NCBI GenBank assembly: GCA_049288955.1
Contig: JBAQIS010000021.1
Span: 22,364-86,363, forward strand
Reading direction: 5' to 3'
DNA from: Candidatus Saccharimonas aalborgensis
GTDB lineage: Bacteria > Patescibacteriota > Saccharimonadia > Saccharimonadales > Saccharimonadaceae
DNA: 64,000 nt
Shown: positions 43,493 through 58,446 of the stretch, piece after piece
How the letters are laid out: every line of letters starts with the position of its first letter
Numbering within the stretch: the stretch's first letter is position 1
Translations under genes and position numbers: made by a program
The notes under the pieces: model-generated
What the model was told of the DNA's origin: nothing
What the model saw: the letters and a program-made list of their open reading frames with translations, nothing else
Databases searched by the model: none

Positions 43493-43521
43493 TTGACAAA
43501 TACGCTCAAAAATGCTATTGT
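43493..43521 (+). promoter_or_regulatory. Sigma70-like promoter for the high-GC gene at 43572
   Basis: TTGACA-17 nt-TATTGT with TGC extended -10. Confidence 0.5.
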
Positions 43522-43571
43522 GATAATAACGTCTACAGTCCTAGATGCACCTCTCACGAAAGGAAAGCTCG

Positions 43572-44285
43572 ATGAACATCTCTCGTCGCAAGATCAACTG
43601 GGCAATCATCGCGGGCCTCTTGGTGGCTGCCATCGCGATCAGTGCGCTTTGGGTGTTGATGGATCCCCTGCGTGGGGCCAACACCCAGAAGCCGCCGCTC
43701 GGCTCGGCCACGGTCACGCAGACCATGGCTCCGACCACCGGGGTTTCCACTCCGGTGGCGTCCTCGACCGCCCCAGTGAGTACCTCGCCGACCACCGTCA
43801 CCGCGACGCCGTCGCGGACGACGGTTGCTCCGACGACGTCCGCCCCCTCGCGGACAACGCCGGTCAACACCACTCCGGTGGTGTCGCGGGTATTCAACCG
43901 CTACACCATCCAGTTGCCGCCCGGCACGACGATCGTCGGCAGCCAGACCGGCAGGTTCGGCGAGGTGCGAACCACCTACAAGACCTCGGCCGGCGAGCAG
44001 CTCATGACCATCGCTTTCTCGCCAGATTTCAGGTGGCGGGACTACAGCGAGGAGCTGACGGCCAAGTGCCCAAGTGCCACCGAGGGCCCGCAGACCCCCA
44101 TCAACTGGGGCGGTTCCTATAGGGGCGGCTACACCGCCTGGGACCGCTCCAAGTGTGACCAGGGCCCACTGGTGACGTTCACCACCTTCTCGGAGGTGGA
44201 GAACGTGGCGGTGGTGCAGTTCAGGGTGGCCAAGCCGGCCCCCTGGCTGGTCAAGGCCATCGAGAAGGCGAACTGGAAGGAGTAA
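43572..44285 (+). CDS. Membrane-anchored/secreted protein with Thr/Pro/Ser-rich linker (about 70% GC)
   Basis: 237 aa from MNISRRKINWAIIAGLLVAAIAISALWVL; AAGGAAAG RBS; low-complexity TTVTATPSRTTVAPTTSAPSRTTPVNTTP; globular Cys-containing C-terminus. Confidence 0.65.
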   Translation: MNISRRKINWAIIAGLLVAAIAISALWVLMDPLRGANTQKPPLGSATVTQTMAPTTGVSTPVASSTAPVSTSPTTVTATPSRTTVAPTTSAPSRTTPVNTTPVVSRVFNRYTIQLPPGTTIVGSQTGRFGEVRTTYKTSAGEQLMTIAFSPDFRWRDYSEELTAKCPSATEGPQTPINWGGSYRGGYTAWDRSKCDQGPLVTFTTFSEVENVAVVQFRVAKPAPWLVKAIEKANWKE

Positions 44286-44323
44286 CGTCCTTTCCAGGAC
44301 GCGCTTCATCACTTCCTTCCACT

Positions 44324-44353
44324 CACCCCTCGTCCGTGTACTCGGACGAGGGG
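44324..44353. terminator. 12-bp GC-rich hairpin between convergent high-GC genes
   Basis: ACCCCTCGTCCG-tgtact-CGGACGAGGGGT. Confidence 0.55.
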
Positions 44354-44463
44354 TCTTCTCGTATGATGGGTATATAAAGTGACTATAACGAAGAAACCCG
44401 TCGAGAGACGGAGCGAGCCGATGGTTCGGCGGGCTTCTTCGTCCTTCGACGGGTTGTAGGGAG

Positions 44464-44613
44464 TCAGCGGCGGCGGTTGCTCCAGCGGCGATGCCACTGG
44501 GTGTTTACAAACCGTCTGACCCATTTCGGGCCGTACTCCATCGCGATGAAAGCAATGAAGACGATCAGAAATGTCATCACGATCGCTCCAGCGATGATGT
44601 GCAGCCAACTCAT
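44464..44613 (-). CDS. 49-aa membrane protein (not in the ORF track)
   Basis: My translation: MSWLHIIAGAIVMTFLIVFIAFIAMEYGPKWVRRFVNTQWHRRWSNRRR; ATGA overlap with the upstream gene stop. Confidence 0.5.
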   Translation of the reverse strand: MSWLHIIAGAIVMTFLIVFIAFIAMEYGPKWVRRFVNTQWHRRWSNRRR

Positions 44614-44801
44614 GGTGTCGTCTTGTCCTCAAGGCCTTCGGCGCTCCCCCACGTTTTCTCAAGCAGGCGGAGGTTACGCTCGATGGCGCCCTCCCTCTGC
44701 TTCGAGAAGCGGGAGTACCGCCGACGCAACAGGATGGCGGTGCCAGCCGCGACGGCGGCACCGGTGCTGACACCGATGATGACCTTGGTACGCTTGCTCA
44801 T
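44610..44801 (-). CDS. 63-aa membrane-anchored protein (YtxH-like N-terminus)
   Basis: MSKRTKVIIGVSTGAAVAAGTAILL then a charged helix; high GC. Confidence 0.5.
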   Translation of the reverse strand: MSKRTKVIIGVSTGAAVAAGTAILLRRRYSRFSKQREGAIERNLRLLEKTWGSAEGLEDKTTP

Positions 44802-44934
44802 GAGGTGTTCCTCATCTCTCTAATCGGGAGAACTGACAAAATATATTGTAGAATAAAAAAGTTATATTGTAAATACTTATACGAAAAACGCCTCCGAAAC
44901 CTATCGGGGGCTTTTTCGTCCTCACTATCTCGAG

Positions 44935-45171
44935 CTAGCACACGCTGAGAAGGGTCCAACCACTTCCCTGAGCTCGCAGACAAAAGTTTTGGCTGCCGTC
45001 ACTCATGGTGACTGTACTCCAGATACGTTCACCGCGACGGATAGTGGTGCGGATACCCCTATCGATAAAACAATAGGTGCGACCTCGCCATTCCATGCGT
45101 GTGGGGTAGGTGCTCATACCGGGCCCAAACCCTACTGCGGTGATAGAAACAGGACTGTTAATTGTTCTCAT
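44935..45171 (-). CDS. Small hypothetical protein (78 aa)
   Basis: AGGAGAG RBS 6 nt upstream; contains PTRMEWRGRTYCF...ERIWSTV...GSGWTLL; terminator-like hairpin at 44889-44920. Confidence 0.45.
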   Translation of the reverse strand: MRTINSPVSITAVGFGPGMSTYPTRMEWRGRTYCFIDRGIRTTIRRGERIWSTVTMSDGSQNFCLRAQGSGWTLLSVC

Positions 45172-45189
45172 AGCATACTCTCCTATGGA

Positions 45190-45366
45190 TTAGTGTTTGA
45201 CAAGTGGTGGAGTATGAACGACAAGGCCTTTTGTCCGCCCCACTGTGTAGCGGTACAATCGTCTGCCTGAAGTCGTGAGTTTGTGGAGGTTCACCCGCGT
45301 GGATGAGCCTGGTGCGATAGACGGTTTGGCTGTGGAAACGCTCTCACCGAGAACGAGTACAACCAT
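45190..45366 (-). CDS. Small hypothetical protein (58 aa, not in the ORF track)
   Basis: My translation: MVVLVLGESVSTAKPSIAPGSSTRVNLHKLTTSGRRLYRYTVGRTKGLVVHTPPLVKH; 18 nt upstream of the next ORF; weak RBS. Confidence 0.3.
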   Translation of the reverse strand: MVVLVLGESVSTAKPSIAPGSSTRVNLHKLTTSGRRLYRYTVGRTKGLVVHTPPLVKH

Positions 45367-45455
45367 AACCTATATATAGTATAGCGCGGTGATTGGGTGC
45401 GTCGTCAACACTAGTAATTTATGGGTTTTGTGGTGAAAACAGATCGTGAAAATAC

Positions 45456-46310
45456 TTAGGAATAATCGCCACCTGTGATGTCGTAATATGCCTCGAGGGT
45501 TTTGAGGTTTTTGGCTTTCATATCAAGAGCAACGGTGCGGCCAACATATCGCCAATGCCACGGTTCGGGTGAATAGCCAGTGATTGGGGTCATGCCCTGT
45601 TGATATCGTTCAATGAACCCATACTCAGCAGCGTGAGCTTGCAGCCAGGTATACGCTGGGGTGCTGGCAAAACACTCCAGCGCGCAATTTCCCGCCTTGA
45701 CATCTATCGCCAGCCCCGTTTGGTGCTCGCTATAGCCAGGGCGCGCGCGTGTACTATCGGCCAAGGCCGTAGTTCCGGTGATATTAACACCTTCATTGTA
45801 GGTCGCTATCTGGTTGTCATAAGAGCGAAACGCACTGGTGAGCGAGATAGTTGCGCCAGTTGACCTGATAGTAGAAAGAAGTGACGTAAGTTGCTCGGCC
45901 ATCTCTTGGCGAACGAAGAAACCTTCGACAAGTGTAAGGTTTTGTGGTGTCCAGGACTGTGGCTCTATACAGTGCTTTTTGTTTACTACCACCGTGAGTG
46001 TCGCCGGTGATGAGATATCACAGGGAGTTTCGGTCGGCACTGGATCATGTGCGACGAACTGTTGGGGTTGGACGCTCGCTTGTTCCTCGCGTGACTGGGC
46101 TTTGGCGAGTTTTTGCTGCAAAAAAGTTTTTATATTTGCATCGATGAGGGCGAAGTCTCGTTGCTGAGCTTCATGACGCTGTGCATCTCGTGCACGTTCC
46201 CATAGATCGAAACAAAAAAGTCCACCAAGCAGAAGTGCGGTGAACAGTACGAGCGCTATCGGAAGCCGTGGGATACGGTGAGAGGTGGTAGATTTCTTCT
46301 TCGTTGGCAT
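45456..46310 (-). CDS. D-alanyl-D-alanine carboxypeptidase, VanY/M15 family, N-terminal membrane anchor
   Basis: YSEHQTGLAIDV and EPWHWRYVG zinc-site motifs; start at MPTKKKSTTS. Confidence 0.8.
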   Translation of the reverse strand: MPTKKKSTTSHRIPRLPIALVLFTALLLGGLFCFDLWERARDAQRHEAQQRDFALIDANIKTFLQQKLAKAQSREEQASVQPQQFVAHDPVPTETPCDISSPATLTVVVNKKHCIEPQSWTPQNLTLVEGFFVRQEMAEQLTSLLSTIRSTGATISLTSAFRSYDNQIATYNEGVNITGTTALADSTRARPGYSEHQTGLAIDVKAGNCALECFASTPAYTWLQAHAAEYGFIERYQQGMTPITGYSPEPWHWRYVGRTVALDMKAKNLKTLEAYYDITGGDYS

Positions 46311-46391
46311 TGTTTCTAGTATACAGCTTTTGGCAGACACAAATCAGTACTCATAGTGGTGAGTTATGTGATAATGCCGTTGCTAAGATTT

Positions 46392-48185
46392 CTAGTAAAC
46401 ATACTGATTATTTAAAGGGTGCAGAAAGATCGCGTCTCTTGGCTGCCGCACTGTGCCCGGCGTGGTGCTACCAATACCAATTTGTCCATCACTATTTGCA
46501 CCCCAACAATAGCTAATATTGTTCGCGATAGCGCATATGCGCATCGCGCCACCTGTGAGGCCGTATATCCTATTGTTTGCGAACACACTGGGAGTATAGG
46601 TATCAGTGACAGCGACCGGCACAGCCGTACGAACCGATGCCCCATCGCCACGCGTGGATGACGCGCCCCAGCAGTAGGCTCGACTGGTGTTTATGTCGCC
46701 GCCCGTATAGGCGGTGACGCAACCACCTCCCGCCGACGTACCAAGCTCCACGGGCGTTCTGCCCGACAGCACACCCGATGTTGATACTGCTTGGGGTGCG
46801 ATGTATAACCACGCAGGAAACGTATTGCCGCTGAGGCCCATAGTGCCGTTGTTTCCCAGGCCGCCGTCTAGATTGCTGCCCCAGCAGTAGGCGCGGGCAT
46901 CGGCAGTGGTTGTCGTGTAGGCGATCGCACAAGTGTGTGCGTTGCCTTGTGCAATACCTCCGTTCACCCCGGGTTCATAGTAAGCATTGCCATCGCCAGT
47001 GATGGCAATGACTTTTTTACCCGACAACGCCCCTCCGGTGTAGACAGCAGTGGGGACGATAGCCTTGTTGGTGGCATTAGTTCCTGTAGGCATCACATTT
47101 ATTCCGAGCTCACCGTCTTGGTTGCTCCCCCAGCAGTAGGCCACGAATGAGGCGATGGCACAGATGTGGTTGTTGAAAGCTCCTGAGGGTGATACGTACG
47201 AGATAGTTTTGTTGGCAAGGGCACCATAACCTCCCGAGGGGCCGCCGATGAGCACAGGAGTTAGCACCGAAACATTTGAGGATTTATTATTGCCCACCTG
47301 ACCGCTAGAGTTGCTCCCCCAACAATAGAGCTCTCCGCCGTCAGTGAGCGCACACGCTGCGTTGCCGGTTACCCCTAATTTAAGGACATTTTTGCCCACT
47401 AGACCACCAACTTTTACTGGCACTGAACTATCGGTTGTTGAATTGTTACCCAGCTGACCCTGGTTGTTCCTTCCCCAGCAGTATGCCTCGCCAGTTTCAA
47501 TAACAACACAGTTGAAATAGCCTCCCGATGCCATCTGTGTGACTTTGTAGGCGCCAATGCCGCTTGGATACGGATCGCGCTTCACTTTGACAGGAATTAG
47601 GCTGTCAGTTGTTGTGCCATTGCCAAGCTGGCCATACTGGTTCCTCCCCCAGCAATATGTACTGTAGGAGAGCACGCCGCAGGTGCGCAGCGTGCCACTC
47701 GTAGACTGTTGGCTCGAAAGCGTTGGATCCCAGGTGAGAGTTTTTTTGACAAGGCTCGTATATGTCTTTGTGCTCCCGCCCGTGCCAACGGTTGCAGTTC
47801 CGGTTGCAGATATTTGCACACTGTTACCAAGGCTGGCATCGAGGTCACCTACGCTATATGTGGTGGTGAGGCCTGTCCGTGTGTACACAGACGATGGATA
47901 GCCTCCGATCGTTGCCCCGCTACAGTCAGTTTGTGGTGTTAGGTTGGGTTTGCTTGCGGCTGGGCCCCATGTTTGCACATGCCCAGATGCTTCGAGGCAA
48001 CTAGCGGCGTACGACGTACCCGCTTCAGCGGCTTGCTCAGCGAGCCGCATATAGTATCGGCTCTGAGTGATCGTGAGAAGAGTTGAGCTGTTTTGTAGCA
48101 ATGATAACAAAATTGTGAGTACGACAATCGACAACACAAGCATAGCTGGCAGAGAAAAGCCCTCCTGAGATCGTACAGTCCTCAT
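46392..48185 (-). CDS. PilX-like pseudopilin N-terminus fused to an RCC1-repeat beta-propeller
   Basis: 597 aa; N-terminal EGFSLPAMLVLSIVVLTILLSL; at least 7 repeats of YCWG(S/R)N..GQLGN. Confidence 0.8.
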   Translation of the reverse strand: MRTVRSQEGFSLPAMLVLSIVVLTILLSLLQNSSTLLTITQSRYYMRLAEQAAEAGTSYAASCLEASGHVQTWGPAASKPNLTPQTDCSGATIGGYPSSVYTRTGLTTTYSVGDLDASLGNSVQISATGTATVGTGGSTKTYTSLVKKTLTWDPTLSSQQSTSGTLRTCGVLSYSTYCWGRNQYGQLGNGTTTDSLIPVKVKRDPYPSGIGAYKVTQMASGGYFNCVVIETGEAYCWGRNNQGQLGNNSTTDSSVPVKVGGLVGKNVLKLGVTGNAACALTDGGELYCWGSNSSGQVGNNKSSNVSVLTPVLIGGPSGGYGALANKTISYVSPSGAFNNHICAIASFVAYCWGSNQDGELGINVMPTGTNATNKAIVPTAVYTGGALSGKKVIAITGDGNAYYEPGVNGGIAQGNAHTCAIAYTTTTADARAYCWGSNLDGGLGNNGTMGLSGNTFPAWLYIAPQAVSTSGVLSGRTPVELGTSAGGGCVTAYTGGDINTSRAYCWGASSTRGDGASVRTAVPVAVTDTYTPSVFANNRIYGLTGGAMRICAIANNISYCWGANSDGQIGIGSTTPGTVRQPRDAIFLHPLNNQYVY

Positions 48186-48964
48186 GGATGGTTCACCCGC
48201 GTGATACGCATTGTTGTCGTACTTGCTATCGGGGAGCTGCCCTGAGTTGCTAGTGTGAGTGTGATGCCAACGCTGTCCATCGTATCAAGGACCGCTGGGT
48301 CGCTTGACGAATAGACATCTGTAGGTGACGTGTCTGTGCCAGAGTAGTAATCGATGGCAAAGCCGGATACGTTTTCCGCGATCACCTCATCGGCAGCTTT
48401 GCATATGGCATTCCAGGGACTGACACTCGGAGGGCATGATTGTTTTTGGTATTGCGGTGGATTGCAGGTTGCCGTTGTTGAGTCGGTAATCGTGCGCCGA
48501 AACAGGGAGTTGTTACGTACAAAATATACAATAAGGTACGGTAACTTTGGGTTATCGTACAAGTTGGTTGCGCAGCTAAATGCCCCTTGCTTATAGACGG
48601 CCTGGCGCGTGTTGCCGAGGGCGTTAGTGGTTGTCGCGTACTGACTGAGCAAAAGTGATCGCGTAGTCGATGATGTGCCGCTATAGGTGACGGGGGTGCC
48701 GCCATTATCTCTGCCATATGGATCACTAAAACCTGCGGGCATGCTTGTAGAAAATGCAAAACTATAGCGCACATCATGTTCCAGCACCGACATCCCAAGC
48801 TGTGCTGTTGCATCGAGCGAAGCTTGAGTGACCATTCGGCTTGATTGGCGGTAGTTATCAATATATATCGTAAATATTGCAGAGGATAAGATTGCAAGTA
48901 CGGTCATGGTGACGACGAGCTCAACAAGTGTAAAGCCTGGACTGGAATGCTTAGTATGCTTCAT
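48182..48964 (-). CDS. Minor pilin (PilW-like), prepilin-type N-terminus
   Basis: SPGFTLVELVVTMTVLAIL; 4-nt overlap with the downstream gene. Confidence 0.75.
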   Translation of the reverse strand: MKHTKHSSPGFTLVELVVTMTVLAILSSAIFTIYIDNYRQSSRMVTQASLDATAQLGMSVLEHDVRYSFAFSTSMPAGFSDPYGRDNGGTPVTYSGTSSTTRSLLLSQYATTTNALGNTRQAVYKQGAFSCATNLYDNPKLPYLIVYFVRNNSLFRRTITDSTTATCNPPQYQKQSCPPSVSPWNAICKAADEVIAENVSGFAIDYYSGTDTSPTDVYSSSDPAVLDTMDSVGITLTLATQGSSPIASTTTMRITRVNHP

Positions 48965-49352
48965 AGCCTGCATAGACAAACTCCGTGTTATTTGCTCCAT
49001 ATGTCACTTTCGACGTCACTGCTATTACACCAGGGCATCCGTATGGCGCCGAAGCGGTTACTAGCTGTGTGACCGGAGATGGTAACCCGCTGATGCCTGC
49101 AGTACTATTGAGGAGGGTGGCGGTACTACCAGCGTTACAGTTAAACCAGTTGCGCGCGCCGCTGCCATTCACATATTGACGCAAGTTGGCGTAGGATAGG
49201 TTGTCTGCTGTTGTTCGACGTGATGTACTGACCGAAATGGTTAGCGAGGAAATGCCCAGTCCCAGTATGCCGAACAGGAATATACTTGAAGCAATGATCG
49301 TGACGATGACCTCTACCAGGGTAAACCCTGACTGCCCGCTGCGAGCGATCAT
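48951..49352 (-). CDS. Minor pilin (PilV-like), prepilin-type N-terminus
   Basis: QSGFTLVEVIVTIIASSIF; 133 aa; ATGA overlap with the upstream gene. Confidence 0.75.
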   Translation of the reverse strand: MIARSGQSGFTLVEVIVTIIASSIFLFGILGLGISSLTISVSTSRRTTADNLSYANLRQYVNGSGARNWFNCNAGSTATLLNSTAGISGLPSPVTQLVTASAPYGCPGVIAVTSKVTYGANNTEFVYAGYEAY

Positions 49353-49819
49353 TGTTGCCTCATACTTTCCCTGACCATAGTGCTACCAGTTGCCTCGCTG
49401 TAATAATAGAGACGGTATCTGACACAGGGTGCGGTGCTACAGAGGGTGCCGGTTGCCGTAAATGGCTGGTAGATATAGGTATTTTGGGTGGCGGTTGCCG
49501 GCGAGGTTGATGAGGCGTTTACTAGGCTATATGAGGACTGTTTTGGTGCGATAAATATATCTTTACCATATGTTGCGGCAATACTGTCAAGCGAGCTACT
49601 AATATCGCTGGTTGTGGGGTAGCCGGGACCACTTGTTGAAGCATTGAGTCGGTAGTAGTCTTCAAACGCACGCCCAATCGATGCAATATCGTTTTGTCGC
49701 TCAATATCTCTGGAACGATTTAGTAGTAAGGGGTCGGCGGCTATGGCAATAGCTGCCAATATCGTGACAATAGTTACAACCACAACGACTTCTACTACGG
49801 TATACCCACGCTCTATCAT
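49349..49819 (-). CDS. Pilin-like protein (FimU/GspH-like position), prepilin-type N-terminus
   Basis: MIERGYTVVEVVVVVTIVTILAAIAIA with Glu at +5. Confidence 0.7.
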   Translation of the reverse strand: MIERGYTVVEVVVVVTIVTILAAIAIAADPLLLNRSRDIERQNDIASIGRAFEDYYRLNASTSGPGYPTTSDISSSLDSIAATYGKDIFIAPKQSSYSLVNASSTSPATATQNTYIYQPFTATGTLCSTAPCVRYRLYYYSEATGSTMVRESMRQQ

Positions 49820-49918
49820 AGTTATATACCTATTGTATGCGAAAAACCAGAAACAGCAACCATGTAGTTACTATGTTTAGGCAGTGCTCCTCTAATAAGT
49901 GCTTCATTTGGGCGGTGT

Positions 49919-49955
49919 GCGCAGGAAGGGAGTTAAAGTACCTCCCCTCCTGCGC
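49919..49955 (-). terminator. GC-rich hairpin at the boundary of the high-GC module and the pilin operon
   Basis: GCGCAGGAAGGGAG-9 nt-CTCCCCTCCTGCGC (13 of 14 pairs). Confidence 0.45.
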
Positions 49956-49973
49956 GAGAACAACCACGTGGGA

Positions 49974-50393
49974 CTACATCATCTTCAGTCGGTTCTCCAT
50001 GATGCCGATCGCCTTTCGAACCGCCTGGATGTAGTCCAGGTAGGACTGAATGGACAGAGTGACGCTCCGAAGAGCAGCGAGTGCGTCCATCTCGCTGTGA
50101 GCGCGCAGACACAGCTCGGTGCCCATGGAGGCAAGCTGTGCAACGATCTCGTCGACGATAGTGCTTGCGGTCGCTGGGAGGTCACCGACCTTGATGCGGT
50201 AGGCGCAGGCTCGCAGCAGATCGCGTGCTTGTGTCATCACCCCGTGGAGGTTGGTGAAGTAGCCGATGATGGCCGCGTCGCGCTGCGTATCACGCGCCTG
50301 GGCGATGCGGTCGAGCGTCGGTGACATGGTGTCGGCTGCTGCAAGCAGCGTTTCTCGTTGCCTTGCGTTGATCATGACCTGCACGGACATCAT
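49974..50393 (-). CDS. All-helical hypothetical protein (139 aa, high GC)
   Basis: AAGGGG RBS; own promoter; the opposite-strand ORF 49899-50324 looks like a GC shadow. Confidence 0.55.
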   Translation of the reverse strand: MMSVQVMINARQRETLLAAADTMSPTLDRIAQARDTQRDAAIIGYFTNLHGVMTQARDLLRACAYRIKVGDLPATASTIVDEIVAQLASMGTELCLRAHSEMDALAALRSVTLSIQSYLDYIQAVRKAIGIMENRLKMM

Positions 50394-50452
50394 CCCCTTT
50401 CAGGACGAGTCGATGGGTGGTTGCTCCGTCTCAGGAAGAGACGGCTAAAGAT

Positions 50453-50481
50453 ACTATAGAATATAACAAAATGTAAAGCAA
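50453..50481 (-). promoter_or_regulatory. Sigma70-like promoter for the gene at 49974-50393
   Basis: Minus strand TTGCTT-17 nt-TATAGT. Confidence 0.45.
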
Positions 50482-50552
50482 ATATTTCTCATTATGATGC
50501 GTGGTCGGTGCAGTTCCCCACTTGGGAGAACTACACCGACCACATGCTCGTC

Positions 50553-50882
50553 TCAGCCGGCGTCGGGCGCCTTGGCGACCACGAGCGGTTCGTTGACACT
50601 GTCGATGAAGGCAGTGATCCGCGCCCCGATCGTCGACAGGAGCGTCCGGCGCTCCTCGGGCGTGGCGTGCGTTGCCCGCGCAGCAGCATCCATCACCTCA
50701 GTCTCGAGGTCATCGACTGCCTGACGGAGGGTGGTGATGACGTCACGGAAGGCATCCAAGACGTCATCCACATGCTGACGCGCCGTGCCAGCTTGAGCCT
50801 CAGCGGTGCCGAGGTCATTGATTGCAAGGACCACCTCATCTGCTGCTGCCTGCACGGACTTGCGTGAGGGCATGGTTGTCAA
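50553..50882 (-). CDS. All-helical hypothetical protein (109 aa, high GC)
   Basis: TTG start 5 nt after GGGAG; Ala/Asp/Val-rich helical-hairpin-like sequence. Confidence 0.5.
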   Translation of the reverse strand: MTTMPSRKSVQAAADEVVLAINDLGTAEAQAGTARQHVDDVLDAFRDVITTLRQAVDDLETEVMDAAARATHATPEERRTLLSTIGARITAFIDSVNEPLVVAKAPDAG

Positions 50883-50970
50883 GTGAACTCCCTTCGTTTG
50901 GTGCCACGGACCGTTCCGTAGCGAGCAGGGGTAACTATATCAGATTAGACGTACTACGTCAAACAATAAT

Positions 50971-51047
50971 TGGTCGGGGTGACTGGATTTGAACCGGCGA
51001 CCTCACCGTCCCGAACGGTGCGCGCTACCAAACTGCGCCACACCCCG
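50971..51047 (-). tRNA. tRNA-Pro (anticodon CGG), CCA encoded; T-stem has a C-A mismatch
   Basis: Hand fold: acceptor CGGGGTG/CACCCCG, D-arm GCGC-AGTTTGGTA-GCGC, anticodon arm CACCG-TTCGGGA-CGGTG, T-arm GCCGG-TTCAAAT-CCAGT (one mismatch, one G-U). Confidence 0.8.
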
Positions 51048-51174
51048 ATACCATACCCAGTATACACTGATGGTGCGGGAGGCAATAATACTTAACATTT
51101 TATGACATATATGATATAGTTCGTCCAGCTCTTCTACAATTTATTCCTTCTCTCACGGATTGAGGTGAAATCTC

Positions 51175-52014
51175 ATGAACAAGATGCAGAAGCCAAAGCT
51201 CAGCGGCTTCCGCAAGAAGGCGGCCGAGGGGTTCCTGCTCGGCGCCGTCGTGATCTCCCTCTTTCCGTGGGCGATTACGCGCTGGGTAGTGATTCCAGCT
51301 GTCTGGCTCCTTCTCGTGCTGGAGTTGATCAACGTCTCATCTTGGCACAACAAGCTCTGGGACAGGCTGCCGTGGCGGATGCGGCTCCTGATGGATCGAC
51401 CCCAGTGGCCTGGTGCATCAAGCAGGATCCTGCCGCTGTTTGTCGTCATGACGACGGGGCTGGCGGCGTCGATGCTGTGGCTCTACTCCTCATGGCAGCT
51501 CCTCCTTGTACTGCTGGTCAACGCCGTCTTTACCGATGTGTGGGCCCAGGTGGGTGGCATGTTGGCCAAGAAGCGTGCCATTCGCCAGGGTCGCGCAGCT
51601 CCGAAGCAATTCTCTCCTGACTCGCCCAACAAGACATGGGTAGGTGTGGTGAGTGGTCTTATCGGTGGCGCGCTCAGCGGGTTCGTTGCCGCGTGGGTGC
51701 TGGTGACGTTCTGCGGGCTGGGAATCCCGTGGTTTGTCTACGCACTCATGCTGGGAGGCCCGATCGTGGTGGTCCTGGGCGACCTCTTTGAGAGCCGCCT
51801 CAAGCGCGAGGTAGAAATCAAGGACCTGAGTCGGTTCTTTGGCTCTCACGGTGGGGCCTGTGACCGGCTTGACGGTCTGGCTTCCTACCTCGCGACCGTG
51901 GCTTTGACTATCTACGCGCTGGCGTGCTGGCCGTGGTGGATCTGGCTGCTCGTCGCTGCCTGGGATGCAATCGTCATTCGCGAGCTCATGCGCCCGCGGC
52001 GCCGCACGACCTGA
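51175..52014 (+). CDS. Phosphatidate cytidylyltransferase (CdsA) family membrane protein (about 63% GC)
   Basis: 279 aa; SPDSPNKTWVG (compare SPxKTxEG) and ESRLKREVEIKDLSRFFGSHGGACDRLDGL (compare the CdsA signature); GAGGTGA RBS. Confidence 0.65.
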   Translation: MNKMQKPKLSGFRKKAAEGFLLGAVVISLFPWAITRWVVIPAVWLLLVLELINVSSWHNKLWDRLPWRMRLLMDRPQWPGASSRILPLFVVMTTGLAASMLWLYSSWQLLLVLLVNAVFTDVWAQVGGMLAKKRAIRQGRAAPKQFSPDSPNKTWVGVVSGLIGGALSGFVAAWVLVTFCGLGIPWFVYALMLGGPIVVVLGDLFESRLKREVEIKDLSRFFGSHGGACDRLDGLASYLATVALTIYALACWPWWIWLLVAAWDAIVIRELMRPRRRTT

Positions 52015-52034
52015 GGAGGAAACAAGAAAGAGCA

Positions 52035-52058
52035 ACTCGGGTGTCCCAGCACCCGAGT
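52035..52058 (+). terminator. Hairpin after the CdsA-family gene
   Basis: ACTCGGGTG-tcccag-CACCCGAGT followed by CTTTCTTTATCT. Confidence 0.5.
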
Positions 52059-52071
52059 CTTTCTTTATCTG

Positions 52072-52186
52072 TGCCTCCCCCCTCCCCACTCCAGACAACC
52101 GGCCCGTCGCTAACTACATCAGCCTTCGCTCTTGACGGGCCTTGGCCCATCAGGGCCAACTGTCTGTCGGAGGAGGGGTTGAGGCA
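52072..52186 (+). repeat. Structured GC-rich repeat, copy C (about 115 nt)
   Basis: Core matches copy B with 4 substitutions in 100 nt, two of them a compensatory pair in the 8-bp stem (GCC/GGC to GTC/GAC). Confidence 0.85.
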
Positions 52187-52268
52187 TAGCCTCTATATAA
52201 TTGACAAAACAATTATAAAAGTATACTATATATTATACCTAACCCCGAGTAGAATAAGAGGACTCCTT

Positions 52269-52796
52269 ATGGGACGTTTTGAGGCTCCGAATGGGCACGA
52301 CTTCTGGCTCGTCCAGGAGATCTGCAACAACCCACACAATCCCGCGACGTGGAACTTCATGGACACGCTATCGGTCTCGCCGATGCCTGCCACCGAGTTC
52401 CAGGGTGGCCGACTCGAGCAAGAGCTGGCCAGCCTGCGCGTTGAGCACCCCGGTGAGTTTATCACCATGGGGGCTGTTATCAGCGTTGCTGATGTCAGCC
52501 GGACCGTGTTCCTCGTCTGCCCTATCCGGGCCCTGCATGGGCTCGTGGACGATTTCGAGCAGTGGTTCAGGGATCCGACGGAGGTCATCCACCGGACCAA
52601 GGTCCCGACCCGGTTCGGACACGCGTTCCTCAATAAGCAGCACCTCCATGGTGTCAACGCGGCCGACAGCGGATCGTACAATGGTCGCATCGTCGCCTGG
52701 TGGTCGCTCGAGGACCAGGTGTTCTGGACGCTGGATGCCATGATCGCGCGCCACATCTGTTCGTGGCTGAACGGAGAGGAGTTCACCGAGGGGTAA
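52269..52796 (+). CDS. Hypothetical protein (175 aa, about 60% GC)
   Basis: AAGAGGA RBS 6 nt before the ATG; TTGACA...TATACT promoter-like sequence at 52203-52230; no motif recognised. Confidence 0.55.
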   Translation: MGRFEAPNGHDFWLVQEICNNPHNPATWNFMDTLSVSPMPATEFQGGRLEQELASLRVEHPGEFITMGAVISVADVSRTVFLVCPIRALHGLVDDFEQWFRDPTEVIHRTKVPTRFGHAFLNKQHLHGVNAADSGSYNGRIVAWWSLEDQVFWTLDAMIARHICSWLNGEEFTEG

Positions 52797-52824
52797 GCAA
52801 ACCCCGCACTGCATTCACAAGCTC

Positions 52825-52861
52825 ATGATGAGACCCCGGATGCGCTGCGGGGTCTCATCAT
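52825..52861 (+). terminator. 14-bp stem hairpin after the 175-aa ORF
   Basis: ATGATGAGACCCCG-9 nt-CGGGGTCTCATCAT. Confidence 0.5.
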
Positions 52862-52874
52862 GCCCAATATCAAA

Positions 52875-52910
52875 ACTACCTCTCTGGTATAGAGAGGTAG
52901 TCCTTTTTTT
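52875..52910. terminator. Bidirectional intrinsic terminator (serves rplK on the minus strand)
   Basis: ACTACCTCTCT-ggtat-AGAGAGGTAGT flanked by an A-run and a T-run. Confidence 0.7.
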
Positions 52911-52923
52911 GAAAACGAACTGA

Positions 52924-53349
52924 TTAGTCGGTGACTTCGACGCCCATACTGCGTGCAGTACCAGCGATGACCTTGACCGCACCATCCATGTCGATGGCAT
53001 TGAGCTGTTTCATCTTGGTTTCGGCGATTTCTTCGAGTTGCTTGCGAGAGATTTTGCCGACTTTCTCTGTGTGTGGTTTGCCGCTGCCTTTTTTGATGCC
53101 GATCTTTTCGCGGATCATGTCGTCAACGGGTTGGCCGAGACTTTTCCACGCAAAGGTGCGATCTTCGAACACCTGAATGTGAACGATGACGTCCTTGCCT
53201 ATCATATCTTTGGTTGCTTCGTTGAATGGATTGATAAAATCCATCATGTTGAGGCCCCACTGACCGAGCGTGCTTCCGACTGGAGGACCAGCGGTGGCGC
53301 GACCTGCGGGGATGCGGAGCTTCAAGTTACCGATAACTTGTTTTGCCAT
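52924..53349 (-). CDS. rplK: 50S ribosomal protein L11
   Basis: 141 aa; PAGRATAGPPVGSTLGQWGLNMMDF. Confidence 0.95.
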   Translation of the reverse strand: MAKQVIGNLKLRIPAGRATAGPPVGSTLGQWGLNMMDFINPFNEATKDMIGKDVIVHIQVFEDRTFAWKSLGQPVDDMIREKIGIKKGSGKPHTEKVGKISRKQLEEIAETKMKQLNAIDMDGAVKVIAGTARSMGVEVTD

Positions 53350-53415
53350 AGTTTGATTAACTTTCCTTGATTACTAAATATAATGTGAAGCAAATATTTA
53401 GTGCGTAACAGATGA

Positions 53416-53444
53416 ATTATACCTGATCGGGGTTATTTTTGCAA
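53416..53444 (-). promoter_or_regulatory. Near-consensus promoter for rplK
   Basis: Minus strand TTGCAA-17 nt-TATAAT, about 65 nt upstream of the rplK ATG; overlaps the 3' end of the upstream CDS. Confidence 0.55.
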
Positions 53445-54509
53445 GCGTGACTGGGAGATGGCTCGTTCGGCGGTTTGTCCCAATACAAGGCAACTCCGAT
53501 CGCGCGGAAGTGCTTCGAGCGCTTTGTCCATCGGCCAAAATGAGGGACTGCTCTGACCGAGGGTGGTGTTTTCGAAGCAGCCAAGCTCAGCAGCAATCCG
53601 AACCGGTCCCGCGATGCCATGTGTTTTTGCCGCTAGCTGGTCGTAGCGTGCGATGAGACGCTGGAGGAGAGGTACAACAATGCTACCGCCATAGTGCCCC
53701 ACTGCCGATAGATCATTGCGATCAATTTCGGGGTATGGCAACTCGATGCGAAACTTTTGGCCATCGCCATTGCCGAGTTCCATACTTTGTCCGCCGACAC
53801 GCGCGACTTCTTCGTCAAAGACGGCGCGAATTTGATCGAGAAAATCGCGCAATAGCGGATAATCTTTTGCCGCTGCTTCGGTCGAATGGCTCATATCCCA
53901 CATCAATATGTAGGCATTTGGTGTGGTAGGTACGTCTAGCAAGAGCTTGTCGGCGAGCGAGTAGTAACCCTGCCCGAGGGTATCGAGTTGCGCAGTGGAT
54001 GCCTGAATTGCTTGGTGGTATTGCTGCCACAACTGGCGAAGCTGTAGCTCGCTCGGAAGCTTGCCATGCTCGGGCGAAAAAGCAAATTGAAAGACAGCCT
54101 CACCCTCACGTTCTAGCGCGAGCGGCATGCCAAAAACGATATGTTGCTCTGGGTTCATGAGACTCGGCGCAAACTCAGATCGACCAGTACGAAATGTCTC
54201 ACCGACCCGAGAGGCAACGAGGTCGACGCGTCGACCATTGATATTCGTTCGCTGGAAGTCAAGTCGTGCATCATCGATCGCAGGTGCATTGATGGCGGTA
54301 ATCGCCGCAGCCGAGTCACTATACCAGCGGTCACGCATAAATAGCACAACACCGTCAAATGCAGCGCATTGCCCGAGAGAGCGCACCACAGGATCAACGG
54401 CAGTGTAGATATCGCCGATCGCCTGGACGAGATCGGGTCGCTCTGCCCGTAAGTACTGTTCGTGACGGTTCGCCCGCTCCGGATTATTGGTGTCTGCTGA
54501 CCAAATCAT
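53433..54509 (-). CDS. Class III nucleotidyl-cyclase-like protein with N-terminal sensor-like domain
   Basis: 358 aa; YILMWDMSHSTEAA (compare FxDxxGFT), ELGNGDGQKFRIE (compare KxxGDA), PVRIAAELGCF (compare RIGIHxG); Asn/Arg transition-state residues not evident. Confidence 0.5.
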   Translation of the reverse strand: MIWSADTNNPERANRHEQYLRAERPDLVQAIGDIYTAVDPVVRSLGQCAAFDGVVLFMRDRWYSDSAAAITAINAPAIDDARLDFQRTNINGRRVDLVASRVGETFRTGRSEFAPSLMNPEQHIVFGMPLALEREGEAVFQFAFSPEHGKLPSELQLRQLWQQYHQAIQASTAQLDTLGQGYYSLADKLLLDVPTTPNAYILMWDMSHSTEAAAKDYPLLRDFLDQIRAVFDEEVARVGGQSMELGNGDGQKFRIELPYPEIDRNDLSAVGHYGGSIVVPLLQRLIARYDQLAAKTHGIAGPVRIAAELGCFENTTLGQSSPSFWPMDKALEALPRDRSCLVLGQTAERAISQSRLQK

Positions 54510-54546
54510 AATACAAACTATATCCTAAAAACGGGTATTTTGCAAG

Positions 54547-55320
54547 CTAGCGGCGTTTAACGCGGTCAGCAATAATCGACCCTGCCGCTATCCCAACTGC
54601 AATGGTAATGGCTTGTCCAGCTGCTTTCCCGAGACTGATCAAGGCATCTTTGGCTCGCTCACGTCGTAGTTCAGCAGCTTTCTTACCCTCAGCGTCCTCT
54701 AGATCTGGAGCGCAATCAAAGATTTGTTCAAAAAGTTCATTGAGTTCAGCCATTTGGCCTTCAACAAGCACGTCAACAATTGCTGAGGCACTCCTCGGCG
54801 TCGATTCATGCAGATAGATGTCGAGCAAATCTTCGACAAATGATTTGATTTTTTCTTTTGTGATCAACTCGGTTGAATCATACTTGTCCGAAAGCGCCGC
54901 AAAATACTCATTGATATCTGAGAGATTGTTGTAGAGAATTGTTGTGAGCTCCTGGAGCAAGGTTTCGGTACTCTCGGATTGTAATACGACTTCAGCAATT
55001 AGTTTCGAAAGGGCGACATGGTATTGCTTTTTCATAGCAACGGCACGTCTTTCGAGTTCATCGATGTGCTGCATGTCCGGATAGGCAAATCGGTCGCACA
55101 CTACTTCGCAAACGGTAGCTCTCGCCTCATCAAGTTCTGCCAAATACTGCGCATACCGAGACACTTCCTCGTCAGTGATAGGAAGCTCGATCGGATCCTC
55201 AAGACCAGCGATAGCTTCATGGATTCCCGCAAGCGGGCCCGACGTAATATTGACCGGCTCTTTACGAGTTATCGGCTCCTCTGGTTTATCGGCTGAAGGG
55301 GGCATTTCTGCAACCGTCAT
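54547..55320 (-). CDS. Acidic all-helical protein with a single C-terminal TM anchor
   Basis: 257 aa from MTVAEMPPS (AAGGAG RBS); C-terminus AITIAVGIAAGSIIADRVKRR. Confidence 0.55.
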   Translation of the reverse strand: MTVAEMPPSADKPEEPITRKEPVNITSGPLAGIHEAIAGLEDPIELPITDEEVSRYAQYLAELDEARATVCEVVCDRFAYPDMQHIDELERRAVAMKKQYHVALSKLIAEVVLQSESTETLLQELTTILYNNLSDINEYFAALSDKYDSTELITKEKIKSFVEDLLDIYLHESTPRSASAIVDVLVEGQMAELNELFEQIFDCAPDLEDAEGKKAAELRRERAKDALISLGKAAGQAITIAVGIAAGSIIADRVKRR

Positions 55321-55376
55321 GGTGGAACTCCTTTTGCTCCACGATACCATAAACAGGCTTATTTATCCACAGCCAC

Positions 55377-55405
55377 TTGACAAAATGGCAAAAGTGTGCT
55401 AGCAT
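55377..55405 (+). promoter_or_regulatory. Promoter about 540 nt upstream of the ABC exporter start
   Basis: TTGACA-17 nt-TAGCAT with TGC extended -10. Confidence 0.45.
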
Positions 55406-55946
55406 GGATCCAGCGTTACATCTTGCAAATCAACACGTGTAGTTTAATTTGAGCAATCAGGCGACCCCCGCCCCTGTTTCTTGGCCCTCGGCCAAGACGT
55501 TCATTGACGTATGCCGATAATAAAAAGTCAAAGGCACGAATGAATCGTCACTGACAGACTCTTGGTGGGTTTTCCTGATACTCATATAGCTACGCGAGAT
55601 GAACGCAACATCACACCAAAAAGTTGACTGACCGCATGTCGGCTTGCACCTCAACAAAACTGCAAGGTGTAATGACAATAACGTTAATGGAAAGGATTTA
55701 AGTCGGATGTTAATTATTACATTTATGTCAGCGGGCGAGTAAGTCATCATTTGTGAGGTAATCTCAATCTTGCAAATGTACTTCGCCTGCTATCACCATA
55801 GAGGCCTATCACGTTTTCGAAATTGATAGTAGCTCCAAAACCCCTGTGGTTCCCTGCCCTTTGAGTGCTGGCGTTTTTTTGGCAGCCGAATTCGGCAGGC
55901 AATCACCCTGACAATGAACCAAACAACAAAACAGAAAGGAGGAGGT

Positions 55947-57737
55947 ATGCTTATCGCAGACCTGAAAGCGATTTTGGCGGAAATGCGTCAAGATCCGACC
56001 GTTGCTCCTGAACTACCTGTGGTAGCACGTGCGATTCGACGTACGTTTGCCTGGGAGGTTCTCAGCGAGCTGCTCCAAGTCCTTCAGTCCGTACCAGTGA
56101 TGTTTTTTACGAATGAACTGGTTCGCCCGGGGCCGGAGAGCCCTCGAAACATCGCGCTTGTCGCACTCAGTTTCGCTGTTCTTTATAAAGTAAATCAGCT
56201 TGTCGCCAATCGTATGGGCCTGCATCGTAATGATGTGTTTTGGGGCTCATGGCGCGTTTGGTGGGGCTATGGCAATCGTCGACTGCTCCGCCAGAGTACC
56301 GACTGGCACACAGCTCACAGTACTGGTGAGAAAGATTCGTTGATCGGCAAAAATATCGGACGGTTCCAAGAATTGTTTGATGAAGCGCTGTTCAATACGA
56401 TCCCAGTACTGCTGCGTATCAGTCTGACGACGGCGTTTATGTTTGTGCTTGGCTGGCAATTCGGTCTCGTGGCTATCGTGACGATGGTGCTCTATGGCTA
56501 TGTCCTGACACGGACAGAGCGAACCATGCACCCTCACCGCGAAGAGTTTCAGACACGCATGAAGCAAGTCGAGGACAATGGCAGTGAATTGACGCGCAAT
56601 TGGCGGACAATTCGGACGCTTGGTCTCGAGGAACACTTCAGTGATCGCAACGAAGTACTGTTGCGCGACTTTTGGCACGATGAGTACCCTCGTCACCAGA
56701 CCTGGGCTCGTTGTATCTCGCGTCAGGACGATATCTTGATAGTGAGTCGAGCGTCACTCTATCTTGTGCTGGGCCTTGTTGCTTTACGTTCAGGCAGCAG
56801 TGAAGCCATCGGTTCGCTGATCCTGGCAACGACATGGATGGAGCGTGCCTATAGCAATTACTGGCGTCTGAGTGACTTCCAGCGATTGCTCGGACGCGGA
56901 CAAGAGGCGCTCAGAGAGCTAGTCGCGTTTTTGGCGCTCAAGCCGAGTGTCACCAACACTGATCAACCACGCTGGCCGCGCCGCGTACGCGGAACCGTCA
57001 GTTTCCGAAATGTGTCGTTTGCCTATCCAGGTGATTCGAGAGAATCGACTATTTCACAGTTCGATCTGCGCGTTCCTGCACACACCTCGCTGGCTTTTGT
57101 TGGCGAGAGTGGCAGCGGCAAATCGACGCTGATGCGTTTGCTCGCACGTGAGTACGACCCCTGTGTCGGCAGCATTACCGTCGATGGTATTGACCTACGT
57201 GATATCGACTATCGGCGCTATCGTCATGAGTTGATTGCTGTCGTGAGCCAGACGATCGAGCTATTTGATCGCACCATCGCAGACAATATTCGTATTGCTC
57301 GGCCTGACGCGACGATGGACGAAGTCATCGAGTCGGCGAAGGCTGCCGGTGCGCATGAGTTCATCATGGCGACAGATCACGGATACGACAGTCGGATCGG
57401 TGAAGATGGTCTGACACTTTCGGGTGGTCAACGCCAGCGACTCGCGATTGCTCGCGCGTTGCTGATGAAGCCAGCGATCTTGATTTTGGACGAAGCAACC
57501 TCGGCACTCGATGCAATGAGTCAGGCAGAAGTCCAGGCCACTATCGACGGGCTGATACAGCAACGAGTGTGCACGGTGTTCATCATCGCCCATCGTCTTA
57601 GCACTATTCGCGATGCCGATCGCATCGTGGTGATGCACAAGGGGCAGATGGCTGCCAGCGGGACTCACAAAGAGTTACTCTCGCACAGCGCCATCTATCG
57701 TCGGATGAATGGTCTCGAGAACGGTTCTCACTCCTAA
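55947..57737 (+). CDS. ABC transporter, fused permease/ATPase (MsbA-like exporter)
   Basis: Start moved to the ATG after AAAGGAGGAGG; Walker A GESGSGKSTL, signature LSGGQRQR, Walker B ILILDEATS. Confidence 0.9.
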   Translation: MLIADLKAILAEMRQDPTVAPELPVVARAIRRTFAWEVLSELLQVLQSVPVMFFTNELVRPGPESPRNIALVALSFAVLYKVNQLVANRMGLHRNDVFWGSWRVWWGYGNRRLLRQSTDWHTAHSTGEKDSLIGKNIGRFQELFDEALFNTIPVLLRISLTTAFMFVLGWQFGLVAIVTMVLYGYVLTRTERTMHPHREEFQTRMKQVEDNGSELTRNWRTIRTLGLEEHFSDRNEVLLRDFWHDEYPRHQTWARCISRQDDILIVSRASLYLVLGLVALRSGSSEAIGSLILATTWMERAYSNYWRLSDFQRLLGRGQEALRELVAFLALKPSVTNTDQPRWPRRVRGTVSFRNVSFAYPGDSRESTISQFDLRVPAHTSLAFVGESGSGKSTLMRLLAREYDPCVGSITVDGIDLRDIDYRRYRHELIAVVSQTIELFDRTIADNIRIARPDATMDEVIESAKAAGAHEFIMATDHGYDSRIGEDGLTLSGGQRQRLAIARALLMKPAILILDEATSALDAMSQAEVQATIDGLIQQRVCTVFIIAHRLSTIRDADRIVVMHKGQMAASGTHKELLSHSAIYRRMNGLENGSHS

Positions 57738-57897
57738 AGTCTAGTGTGGTTCGTGTCAGATAATCGAAGAGAGGAGCCTGCAAGATGCCTCCGTGGACTG
57801 AGTTCCACGGAGGCTATTGCTTGGGTAAATAAAGTGGTAACGATATGAAGTACACCGCCTTCCAAAGAGGCGGTGTACTGATATCTTGATACTTGTG

Positions 57898-58446
57898 TTA
57901 GACTTTTTTGACTTGCAGCGCGTCGAGCTCGACGGGCGTGTCGCGGCCAAACATGCTGACCATGACCTTGAGCTTACCCTTTGCAGTGTCGATTTCACTT
58001 ACGGCGCCATCAAAGCCCTTGAATGGTCCATCGGTGATGTTGACCACTTCTCCCGGCTGGAAGTCGATCTGATGCTTGGGGTCCTCGACACCCATACGTT
58101 TTTTGATCTTTGAGATCTCTGCGTCTGAAACAGGCGTTGGCTCAGTACCACTACCGACAAACCCAGTCACGCCAGGTGTATTACGGACAATGTACCATGT
58201 CTCATCGGTTAGTTTCATCTCGACGAGTACATAGCCTTGGAATATCTTGGCCTCAACGACTTTTCGTTTGCCGTTTTTGATCTGAATCTGCTTTTCCTTT
58301 GGCACCATAGCGTCAAAGATCTTGTCTGCCATATCGACAGCCTGAATACGCTGTTTGATTGCATCGGCGACTTTTTCTTCGTAGCCGCTATAGGTGTGGA
58401 TTGCGTACCATTGACGAGTACCATCATATCGATTCTTGTGTGCCAT
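57898..58446 (-). CDS. nusG: Transcription termination/antitermination factor NusG
   Basis: 182 aa; WYAIHTYSGYEEKV NGN domain, KOW GEVVNITDGPFKGFDG. Confidence 0.95.
   Translation of the reverse strand: MAHKNRYDGTRQWYAIHTYSGYEEKVADAIKQRIQAVDMADKIFDAMVPKEKQIQIKNGKRKVVEAKIFQGYVLVEMKLTDETWYIVRNTPGVTGFVGSGTEPTPVSDAEISKIKKRMGVEDPKHQIDFQPGEVVNITDGPFKGFDGAVSEIDTAKGKLKVMVSMFGRDTPVELDALQVKKV

Follow-up and report, generated by a model that had tools for sequence, protein, structure and literature searches.

A GAF-linked, divergent class III cyclase-like protein of Saccharibacteria next to a membrane protein gene that is unlikely to be its Pycsar partner

In class III nucleotidyl cyclases, a lysine four residues before the second metal-binding aspartate, together with an Asp/Glu/Cys partner, specifies the substrate, and the asparagine and arginine of helix alpha4 are the transition-state residues. 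In the mammalian adenylyl cyclase these tasks are divided: C1 supplies the metal-binding Asp pair and C2 supplies the Lys/Asp/Asn/Arg set. The defence system Pycsar, as outlined in PMC11224242, consists of a PycC cyclase along with a receptor for cyclic pyrimidines with a transmembrane (TM) or TIR domain; according to the same outline, Pycsar cyclases have unusual specificity residues and are nonetheless active. For the Saccharibacteria, the only cyclase that we found reported in PMC8386444 and PMC9040727 is a CYTH (class IV) “adenylate cyclase” annotated in oral species (supplementary tables of PMC9040727; PMC8386444). Here we consider a pair of genes from Candidatus Saccharimonas aalborgensis (assembly GCA_049288955.1, contig JBAQIS010000021.1) within a stretch of 64,000 nucleotides, referred to below as the window: the gene of a 358-aa protein (53433..54509 including the stop codon, minus strand) and, upstream of it on the same strand, the gene of an acidic helical protein of 257 aa whose C-terminal part holds a hydrophobic anchor (54547..55320). 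A first-pass annotation, made from the sequence alone, suggested that they might be a Pycsar-like two-gene module. On balance, we believe that the 358-aa protein is soluble and joins a GAF sensor to a cyclase homology domain (CHD) of a highly divergent class III type, most likely as a ligand-gated non-canonical nucleotide cyclase, and that the 257-aa gene is not its partner.

The AlphaFold2 model of the 358-aa protein, computed on the family alignment described below, has a pLDDT of 95.0 and a pTM of 0.91. In this model the architecture is a GAF domain, a long helix and a CHD. The GAF-fold sensor domain is assigned to residues 25-183 (53961..54437, minus strand) by VIA-align and a family signature, the CHD to residues 190-358 (53436..53942, minus strand) by VIA-align, Foldseek and a profile search of the PDB, and the long helix 154-179 joins the two. 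Foldseek returned 50 PDB matches at E <= 0.001; apart from a few diguanylate cyclases, nearly all of those listed are cyclases of class III, and they include Rv1900c (1ybu, E 1.3e-5, target TM 0.64) and Ma1120 (4wp8, target TM 0.70, rmsd 2.6 over 158 columns). The VIA-align search, which covered 48,161 chains, placed the CHD closest to CyaB (3r5g, Z 14.3, residues 190-358, 154 aligned, rmsd 3.2) and to chain A of 1cs4 (Z 14.3, 157 aligned), then to Rv1900c (1ybt) and Rv1625c (7yzi), both at Z 13.9; GGDEF domains matched the model at Z about 11-12.7. The fold is thus the same as that of the bacterial class III catalytic domains from P. aeruginosa (CyaB 3r5g), M. tuberculosis (Rv1900c 1ybt/1ybu and Rv1625c 7yzi/7yz9) and M. 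avium (Ma1120 4wp8), with Z 13.9-14.3 and target TM 0.64-0.70. The first-pass reading of the C-terminal half as a class III cyclase, for which structure prediction and Foldseek had been proposed as a check, is borne out: the fold is of the cyclase type, and the metal-binding aspartates are retained.

The N-terminal half matches GAF domains, namely 4mmn (Z 12.7, rmsd 2.7, 133 aligned), 1ykd (Z 11.9) and 3o5y (Z 11.7), all three over residues 25-183, and also 3eea (Z 11.4), the matches together spanning model residues 23-183. It had been proposed that this half is either a sensor domain or the result of an internal duplication. The GAF fold (Z 11.7-12.7) speaks for a sensor; the duplication was rejected, considering that BLASTP of residues 1-185 against residues 186-358 gives no alignment at E <= 100 and that the folds of the two halves differ. 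The N-terminal segment that resembles a cyclase motif is, according to the model, a part of the GAF fold.

A word-indexed search with the 358-aa protein found 4 proteins; when all 1.84 billion representatives were searched exhaustively with phmmer, 97 relatives emerged at E <= 0.001, including 72 at <= 1e-10 and 28 at <= 1e-30. Apart from 8 fragments (144-240 aa) the relatives are 323-382 aa long, and most of them cover most of the query. The fragments were left out of the family alignment, so that it contains 89 of the 97 relatives, and all conservation counts below are out of 89. When the profile of these 89 members was compared with the PDB, the best 11 sequences were class III adenylate cyclases without exception, from Rv1625c (7yz9) with E 3.1e-4 to the weakest of the 11 with E 0.067. 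The alignment to Rv1625c sets WD-x3-ST against D-I-V-G-F-T and GDG against the motif of the second metal-binding Asp (G-D). Since the family profile aligns both motifs and the best 11 PDB matches are all class III cyclases, the motif resemblance is more than chance. The strings that had been quoted in its support (ILMWDMSHST, GNGDGQKF, VRIAAELG, FWPMDKALEAL and LFMRDRWYSDSAAA) are all five present in the 358-aa translation. The protein-language-model neighbours agree: they are PF00211 clusters (score 0.95, 25 of 30 matches), and GAF+PF00211 clusters also occur among them (score 0.93-0.94). A search with the family alignment among proteins of 670-2000 aa returned no fused or longer forms, which is weak evidence, and a narrow literature search found no report of the family.

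The putative metal site is conserved family-wide. The first metal-binding aspartate, Asp205 of WDMSHST (codon 53895..53897, minus strand), is aligned to the Asp of D-I-V-G-F-T in Rv1625c, and the second, Asp249 of GDGQ (codon 53763..53765, minus strand), to its G-D. Asp205 is found in 85 members, Asp249 in 87 and both together in 85, in agreement with the claim that both aspartates are present; around them Ser209 (82), Gly248 (82) and Gly250 (84) are kept as well. These are the same two aspartates in the same motifs as in the bacterial class III domains, also with S/T after the first one. Arg304 is kept less strictly than the Asp pair (52 of 89); it lies on the strand that corresponds to R-x-G-x-x-x-G of class III cyclases. 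We regard the predicted fold of both domains and the two-Asp metal site with the following S-T, present family-wide in the alignment, as established by the model and the alignment together.

The remaining conservation is peculiar to the family. Pro194, Pro197 and Asn198 are conserved directly before strand 1 (T-P-N-A), with Asn198 in 84 members, and further positions of this kind are Trp204 (79), Gln251 (63), Glu313 (67) and Lys332 (53). In the GAF domain the signature is S116-x-M-N-P-x-x-H123 together with Gln141 (Ser116 in 85, Asn119 in 69, His123 in 60 and Gln141 in 82 members). Compared with the GAF-regulated cyclases, such as the cyanobacterial CyaB2 with its tandem GAF (1ykd) and the GAF-GGDEF protein Dcsbis (4zmu, which VIA-align aligned over residues 34-344 of the model), the order of GAF, helix and palm-type cyclase domain is shared; however, the 358-aa protein has a single GAF domain with a pocket-type motif of its own (S-x-M-N-P-x-x-H and Gln141) and no Pfam GAF match. 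From the bacterial class III domains it differs in that it is only 10-18% identical to them and falls below the Pfam PF00211 threshold, and in that the family has no conserved Lys or Asn-x3-Arg, with T-P-N-A, Trp204, Gln251 and Glu313 of its own. Mammalian C1 (1cs4 chain A) is the joint best structural match and presents the same situation, that is, the Asp pair without the Lys/Asp/Asn/Arg set; but C1 needs a C2-type partner, and neither a second family member nor a PF00211 protein was found in the window genome. The CYTH protein of oral Saccharibacteria has an unrelated fold, belongs to an unrelated family (Pfam CYTH) and is about 190 aa long. The 358-aa protein is best described as a lineage-restricted type of GAF-regulated class III cyclase in which the metal site is kept and the rest of the active site is non-canonical.

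Several facts weigh against an active cyclase, and they have to be considered together with the proposal that the protein is a pseudo-cyclase, i.e., that the CHD binds nucleotide and metal without turnover and the protein is a nucleotide- or ligand-sensing regulator acting through protein contacts. At E <= 1 the protein has no match in Pfam, PF00211 and GAF models included, and PF00211 is absent from the whole window genome even at E <= 0.1; NCBIfam gives no meaningful match and PADLOC no family at E <= 1. The position of the Rv1625c lysine, four before Asp249, is variable in the family (position 245: D in 14, S in 12, L in 9, R in 8 of 89) and is Leu245 in the window protein. There is no N-x3-R in residues 320-340, as the first-pass annotation had already suspected when it called the Asn/Arg pair not evident. 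An hhalign comparison with a PycC-like cyclase of the same class (E 4.7e-4, probability only 33%) has a 5-residue gap at the Asn of that enzyme; the same low-probability alignment places its Lys next to K329. A basic residue occurs at position 329 in 32 and at position 332 in 58 of the members; within helix 324-333 no basic residue is better conserved than Lys332 (53 of 89), yet the window protein has Glu there. Elsewhere, three family copies (in G401, G383 and G322) carry one in-frame stop each; therefore, the gene is dispensable.

The search for a receptor gave no support either. The window genome, 0.96 Mb in 22 contigs (G000), has one Crp-type regulator (cNMP_binding and HTH_Crp_2), on another contig; it also has two CYTH-domain proteins elsewhere, a possible cAMP source of their own, and GGDEF was not found in it. 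Across the genus, PF00027 occurs in 8 of the 31 genomes with the cyclase family and in 18 of the 74 without it, and the nearest relative G021 (99% complete, one contig) has an identical locus and no Crp-type protein. The Crp-type receptor was accordingly rejected as a partner, considering the lack of an overall association and this exception. Separately, the two contexts described below differ in PF00027: where the gene is of the nusG-rplK-gap form, 7 of 9 genomes have it, G021 being a clear exception, and all 16 genomes examined with the form in the MacB context lack it; this is a lead only, and the split is probably a clade effect.

The pseudo-cyclase proposal thus has in its favor the missing canonical Lys, the apparent lack of the Asn/Arg pair, the change of Lys332 to Glu in the window copy, the lack of a Pfam cyclase match and the lack of a co-distributed receptor for cyclic nucleotides (cNMP). 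It is opposed by the retention of both aspartates in 85 of the 89 members along with the flanking Gly and Ser/Thr, since inactive relatives of cyclases usually lose the metal ligands. The activity of Pycsar cyclases in spite of their unusual specificity residues, as outlined in PMC11224242, also counts against it. We consider the pseudo-cyclase a real but clearly weaker possibility than a ligand-gated non-canonical cyclase. As for real catalysis taken by itself, we would put its chances only slightly above even, because the canonical Lys is missing, the Asn/Arg pair is not evident and other residues are conserved instead. A bolder version of the cyclase proposal is that of a palm enzyme, gated by GAF and specific to Saccharibacteria, whose active site keeps the Asp pair but is otherwise rebuilt, with Asn198, Trp204, Gln251 and Glu313 in place of the canonical Lys/Asp/Asn/Arg; either its product would be a nucleotide messenger other than cAMP/cGMP or its substrate would be another one. 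We find this version improbable.

If the protein is a ligand-gated non-canonical cyclase, we presume the following course. The 358-aa protein would probably form a head-to-tail homodimer, as other class III enzymes do, and the dimer would probably use Asp205/Asp249 to bind a nucleoside triphosphate together with two metal ions, by analogy with the same enzymes. Binding of a small ligand to the GAF domain would then probably trigger the conversion of the nucleotide to a cyclic or otherwise modified messenger.

The two genes themselves are as had been described: both open reading frames (ORFs), the 37-nt spacer between the stop of the 257-aa gene and the start of the 358-aa gene, the position between nusG and rplK and the divergent ABC exporter are all present. 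The longest ORF of the upstream gene has 267 aa (54547..55350, minus strand); the internal ATG at 55320, which gives 257 aa, has AAAGGAG seven bases upstream, and the sole homologous protein cluster is also of 257 aa. Compared with G021, 25 of 36 substitutions in the 257-aa gene and 25 of 32 in the 358-aa gene are at third codon positions, with 23 synonymous against 12 non-synonymous codon changes in the former and 21 against 8 in the latter. Judging by these substitutions, both ORFs look like real genes under purifying selection.

The claim that they form a Pycsar-like or another cyclic-nucleotide defence pair, in which infection prompts the cyclase to signal and the tail-anchored protein of 257 aa serves as effector at the membrane, has some apparent merits. 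The genes are adjacent, on the same strand and 37 nt apart; RNA-library contigs bridge their junction; the cyclase family is patchy and fast-evolving; and the CHD is about as similar to Pycsar cyclases (6yii, which is PaPycC according to the outline in PMC11224242, Z 13.4; 7r65, Z 12.4) as to other cyclases. Unusual specificity residues, too, are normal for PycC, and a small membrane protein is encoded next door. However, fold similarity alone (Z 11.3-13.4, with 8jsz at Z 11.7 and 8jsf at Z 11.3) does not separate PycC from other CHDs, and the other findings oppose the pairing. The 257-aa family, as a profile, occurs in 2 of 105 genus genomes, and these are 2 of the 31 that carry the cyclase family; the 257-aa gene adjoins the cyclase gene in 2 of the 25 examined loci. 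No PycC model matches the 358-aa protein at E <= 1, and no cNMP-binding, PycTM or other effector model of Pfam or PADLOC matches the 257-aa protein at this threshold, in line with the earlier remark that the partner has no recognisable cNMP-binding domain. Its all-helical prediction, from a low-confidence model, leaves no room for a beta-barrel cNMP-binding domain. The pair also differs from Pycsar in its N-terminal GAF domain, and there is a promoter-like site between the two genes.

A check of the window for a defence-island context gave a negative result. PADLOC at E <= 0.001 found nothing in 14 of the 15 neighbouring ORFs of the window, and the fifteenth is a histidine kinase matched through its generic ATPase domain; the context is one of housekeeping genes (rplK, nusG, secE). 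The same library does detect a true pair. In a class-wide PF00211 search we met a genuine Pycsar pair in the same class (L114:862-2391, genome G210:C2), which served as a positive control: its 329-aa cyclase matches PADLOC PycC at 1.5e-51 and BcPycC (7r65) at E 4.5e-19, and the adjacent 177-aa protein matches Pfam PF18967 at 9e-10 and PADLOC PycTM at 2e-25. It can be noted in passing that Saccharibacteria are thereby seen to be able to carry Pycsar. A Pycsar-type defence module was rejected for the locus of the window, given the pairing that is not conserved, the lack of PycC and PycTM matches and the housekeeping context, and we consider any defence pair of this kind very unlikely. A cyclase gene beside a small membrane protein gene is therefore insufficient to call Pycsar, and the true pair of the same class is the contrast.

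What is left of the 257-aa protein is as follows. It is acidic (pI 4.55, 49 D+E against 27 K+R) and is predicted to have one C-terminal TM helix, as had been stated: the single hydrophobic stretch, residues 233-251 (54568..54624, minus strand), is a predicted membrane anchor with a best 19-residue Kyte-Doolittle window of 1.74, and it is directly followed by the basic C-terminus DRVKRR. The statement that the protein is all-helical agrees with the prediction, but the model is poor (pLDDT 52, four sequences). A word-indexed search gives one cluster, and we met a single distant homologue, L033:13178-13882 (E 4e-10, with 29% identity over 175 aa), which has the same C-terminal anchor and also lies in the nusG-rplK gap, but beside an unrelated 205-aa gene and without a cyclase. 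The matches of the protein, in its 267-aa or 257-aa form, are sub-threshold (EAP30 in Pfam, E 0.068; LmuC in PADLOC, E 0.0055), and the language-model clusters give one lead with a score of 0.75, below the useful range. The 257-aa gene is a separate rare accessory gene, a chance neighbour in the nusG-rplK site of this species and its closest relative.

The cyclase family itself is confined to Saccharimonadia (Saccharibacteria), patchy, fast-diverging and without a conserved gene partner. It occurs in 31 of the 105 genus genomes (28 of the 78 high-quality ones), with one copy per genome, in 14 of 301 genomes sampled across the class Saccharimonadia (6 of 160 genera) and in none of 16 genomes of other families of the order; for comparison, PF00211, the Pfam model of canonical class III cyclases, occurs in 2 of the same 301 genomes. 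The 358-aa protein as a single query against the named genomes gave no confirmed relative, and nusG was used there instead. Other Saccharibacteria were surveyed in this manner through 80 nusG-centred loci, the closest nusG relatives in named assemblies being almost all metagenome-assembled genomes of Saccharibacteria.

Within the genus, the neighbourhoods comprise the window and 24 of the other 30 loci (25 in total), six being left out as they are on short contigs. In 9 of the 25 the gene lies in the nusG-rplK gap, and in 16 it lies beside a MacB-type ABC operon and a gene of a 315-aa protein. Six of the gap copies are full-length (G000, G021, G002, G023, G014 and G054). The other three (G043, G048 and G017) are GAF-less mini cyclase-domain genes of 132-145 aa directly upstream of rplK, which retain WDM-x2-ST and GDGQ (L111:6953-7366, L112:6966-7403 and L113:6973-7371). 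The nusG-centred loci add one more full-length copy between nusG and rplK (L075) and a partial copy after nusG at a contig end (L070); the matches in L072 and L027 have the very sequences of the G048 and G017 copies. In other genera the cyclase gene either lies, on the opposite strand, between tsf and frr (L119, L122) or adjoins one of these two genes (L118, L120); in L123 the ORF lengths follow the same order as in the tsf/frr loci, the ORFs being compared by length alone. In many bacteria the position between tsf and frr is occupied by pyrH.

In the window, the flanks of the insertion site are rplK (L11; 52924..53349, minus strand; Pfam Ribosomal_L11 and L11_N) downstream and nusG (57898..58446, minus strand; Pfam NusG and KOW) upstream, with secE also among the flanking genes by Pfam, and the gap between them is 4548 bp (53350-57897). 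The spacer from the 358-aa stop to the rplK start is 83 nt. In 71 loci that contain both nusG and rplK the median of the gap is 330 bp, 13 gaps are at least 1 kb and the maximum is 4377 bp; the cargo of the large ones is unrelated and includes a histidine kinase, a gene resembling a transposase, secreted proteins and genes of no known kind. In Saccharibacteria (loci L018-L097) this gap is thus a recurrent, variable site of insertion. Two small families recur in it as well, one of 167-215 aa (L033, L020, L018) and one of 126-138 aa starting with M-x-x-x-T-Y-T (L018, L011); these genes (L033:13178-14535, L018:10673-11790, L020:11234-11737, L011:6142-6558) have no assigned function, and no Pfam match was obtained in L033 and L011, the two loci scanned.

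The repeated siting by rplK and tsf/frr, GAF-less forms included, could mean a link to the translation machinery, in the sense that the CHD protein acts with L11 or translation factors. Nine genus genomes and L075 have a full-length or GAF-less copy upstream of rplK and on its strand, in each case directly upstream but for G014 (1.7 kb between), and the gene is between or beside tsf and frr in two other genera. However, the gap is a general site for many unrelated genes, as the lengths given above demonstrate; the strand is opposite in the tsf/frr loci checked; the largest subfamily sits elsewhere; and genomes of ~1 Mb consist mostly of housekeeping genes, hence such neighbours are to be expected. 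We consider this role the least probable of those discussed.

The divergent neighbour on the other side is an MsbA-type ABC exporter of 607 aa (55914..57737, plus strand; NCBIfam and Pfam), separated from the 257-aa start by 593 nt. It is tempting to propose a functional pair, in which the cyclase-like protein regulates the exporter or the two share a control region. The exporter orthologue is rare (6 of the 105 genus genomes) and stands divergently beside the cyclase gene in 5 of them, these being five of the nine gap loci; the 257-aa gene is present in only two of the nine (G000 and G021). A second subfamily, moreover, lies beside a different, MacB-type ABC system in 16 loci. Against such a pair, the sixth genome (G055) has the exporter in the same gap and no cyclase gene (no HMM match at E <= 10), the gap holds the cyclase gene but no exporter in G054 and L075, and outside the genus no copy adjoins an ABC gene. 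The five linked cases may go back to a single arrangement inherited by related species, and the 16 MacB-context loci are close kin, considering that their neighbours are 87-100% identical. We therefore find the exporter pair quite unlikely, though less so than the defence pair. The exporter orthologue of G023 (G023:C4:33715-35514) has one in-frame TGA. A Nudix gene is found near the cyclase gene in the MacB-context loci (wHTH-Nudix), directly beside it in genus g22 and near it in L121; it was set aside as a partner, the adjacency being plausibly due to chance, because the window genome has 14 NUDIX matches in 0.96 Mb (contigs C4-C20, none of them on the contig of the window).

Concerning expression, a consensus scan found two promoter-like sites, which are pattern matches only: TTGCAA-17-TATAGT in the 37-nt spacer before the 358-aa gene (54517..54545, minus strand, 9/12), with both hexamers unchanged in G021, and TTGCAA-17-TATAAT at the end of the 358-aa gene before rplK (53416..53444, minus strand, 10/12). 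Most of the stretch, the 358-aa gene included, is covered by RNA-library contigs from metatranscriptomes of wastewater and biofilm (two studies), which also bridge the junctions of the 257-aa and 358-aa genes (e.g., 54022-54635) and of the 358-aa gene and rplK (e.g., 53235-53544). These are assembled contigs, from which strand, ends, level and a single transcript are not readable and in which DNA carry-over is possible; they hint that the 358-aa gene is expressed.

A few further features of the window can be mentioned. The genes rplK and rplA are split by ~10 kb (42494-52924), and rplA (41448-42494) encodes an L1 of 348 aa with a long N-terminal extension. The insert contains three pilin-like genes (N_methyl motif), a gene of a 597-aa protein with RCC1 repeats, one of a VanY-type peptidase and a CdsA-like gene, besides small helical proteins. 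The G+C content is raised in a part of it (58-62% at 50000-52800); this island encodes on the minus strand two small helical proteins of 139 aa (49974-50393) and 109 aa (50553-50882), the latter with a weak, sub-threshold match to DUF6507 (E 0.014).

The Saccharibacteria live as obligate episymbionts, their genomes measure ~1 Mb, and the ways in which they sense a host are little known. Should the 358-aa protein be active, the lineage would have in it a second-messenger enzyme of its own whose active site is non-standard, and it would offer an entry point into the signalling of this candidate-phylum group. Should the site prove to be rebuilt in the manner described above, these episymbiotic bacteria with reduced genomes would have a signalling pathway of their own.

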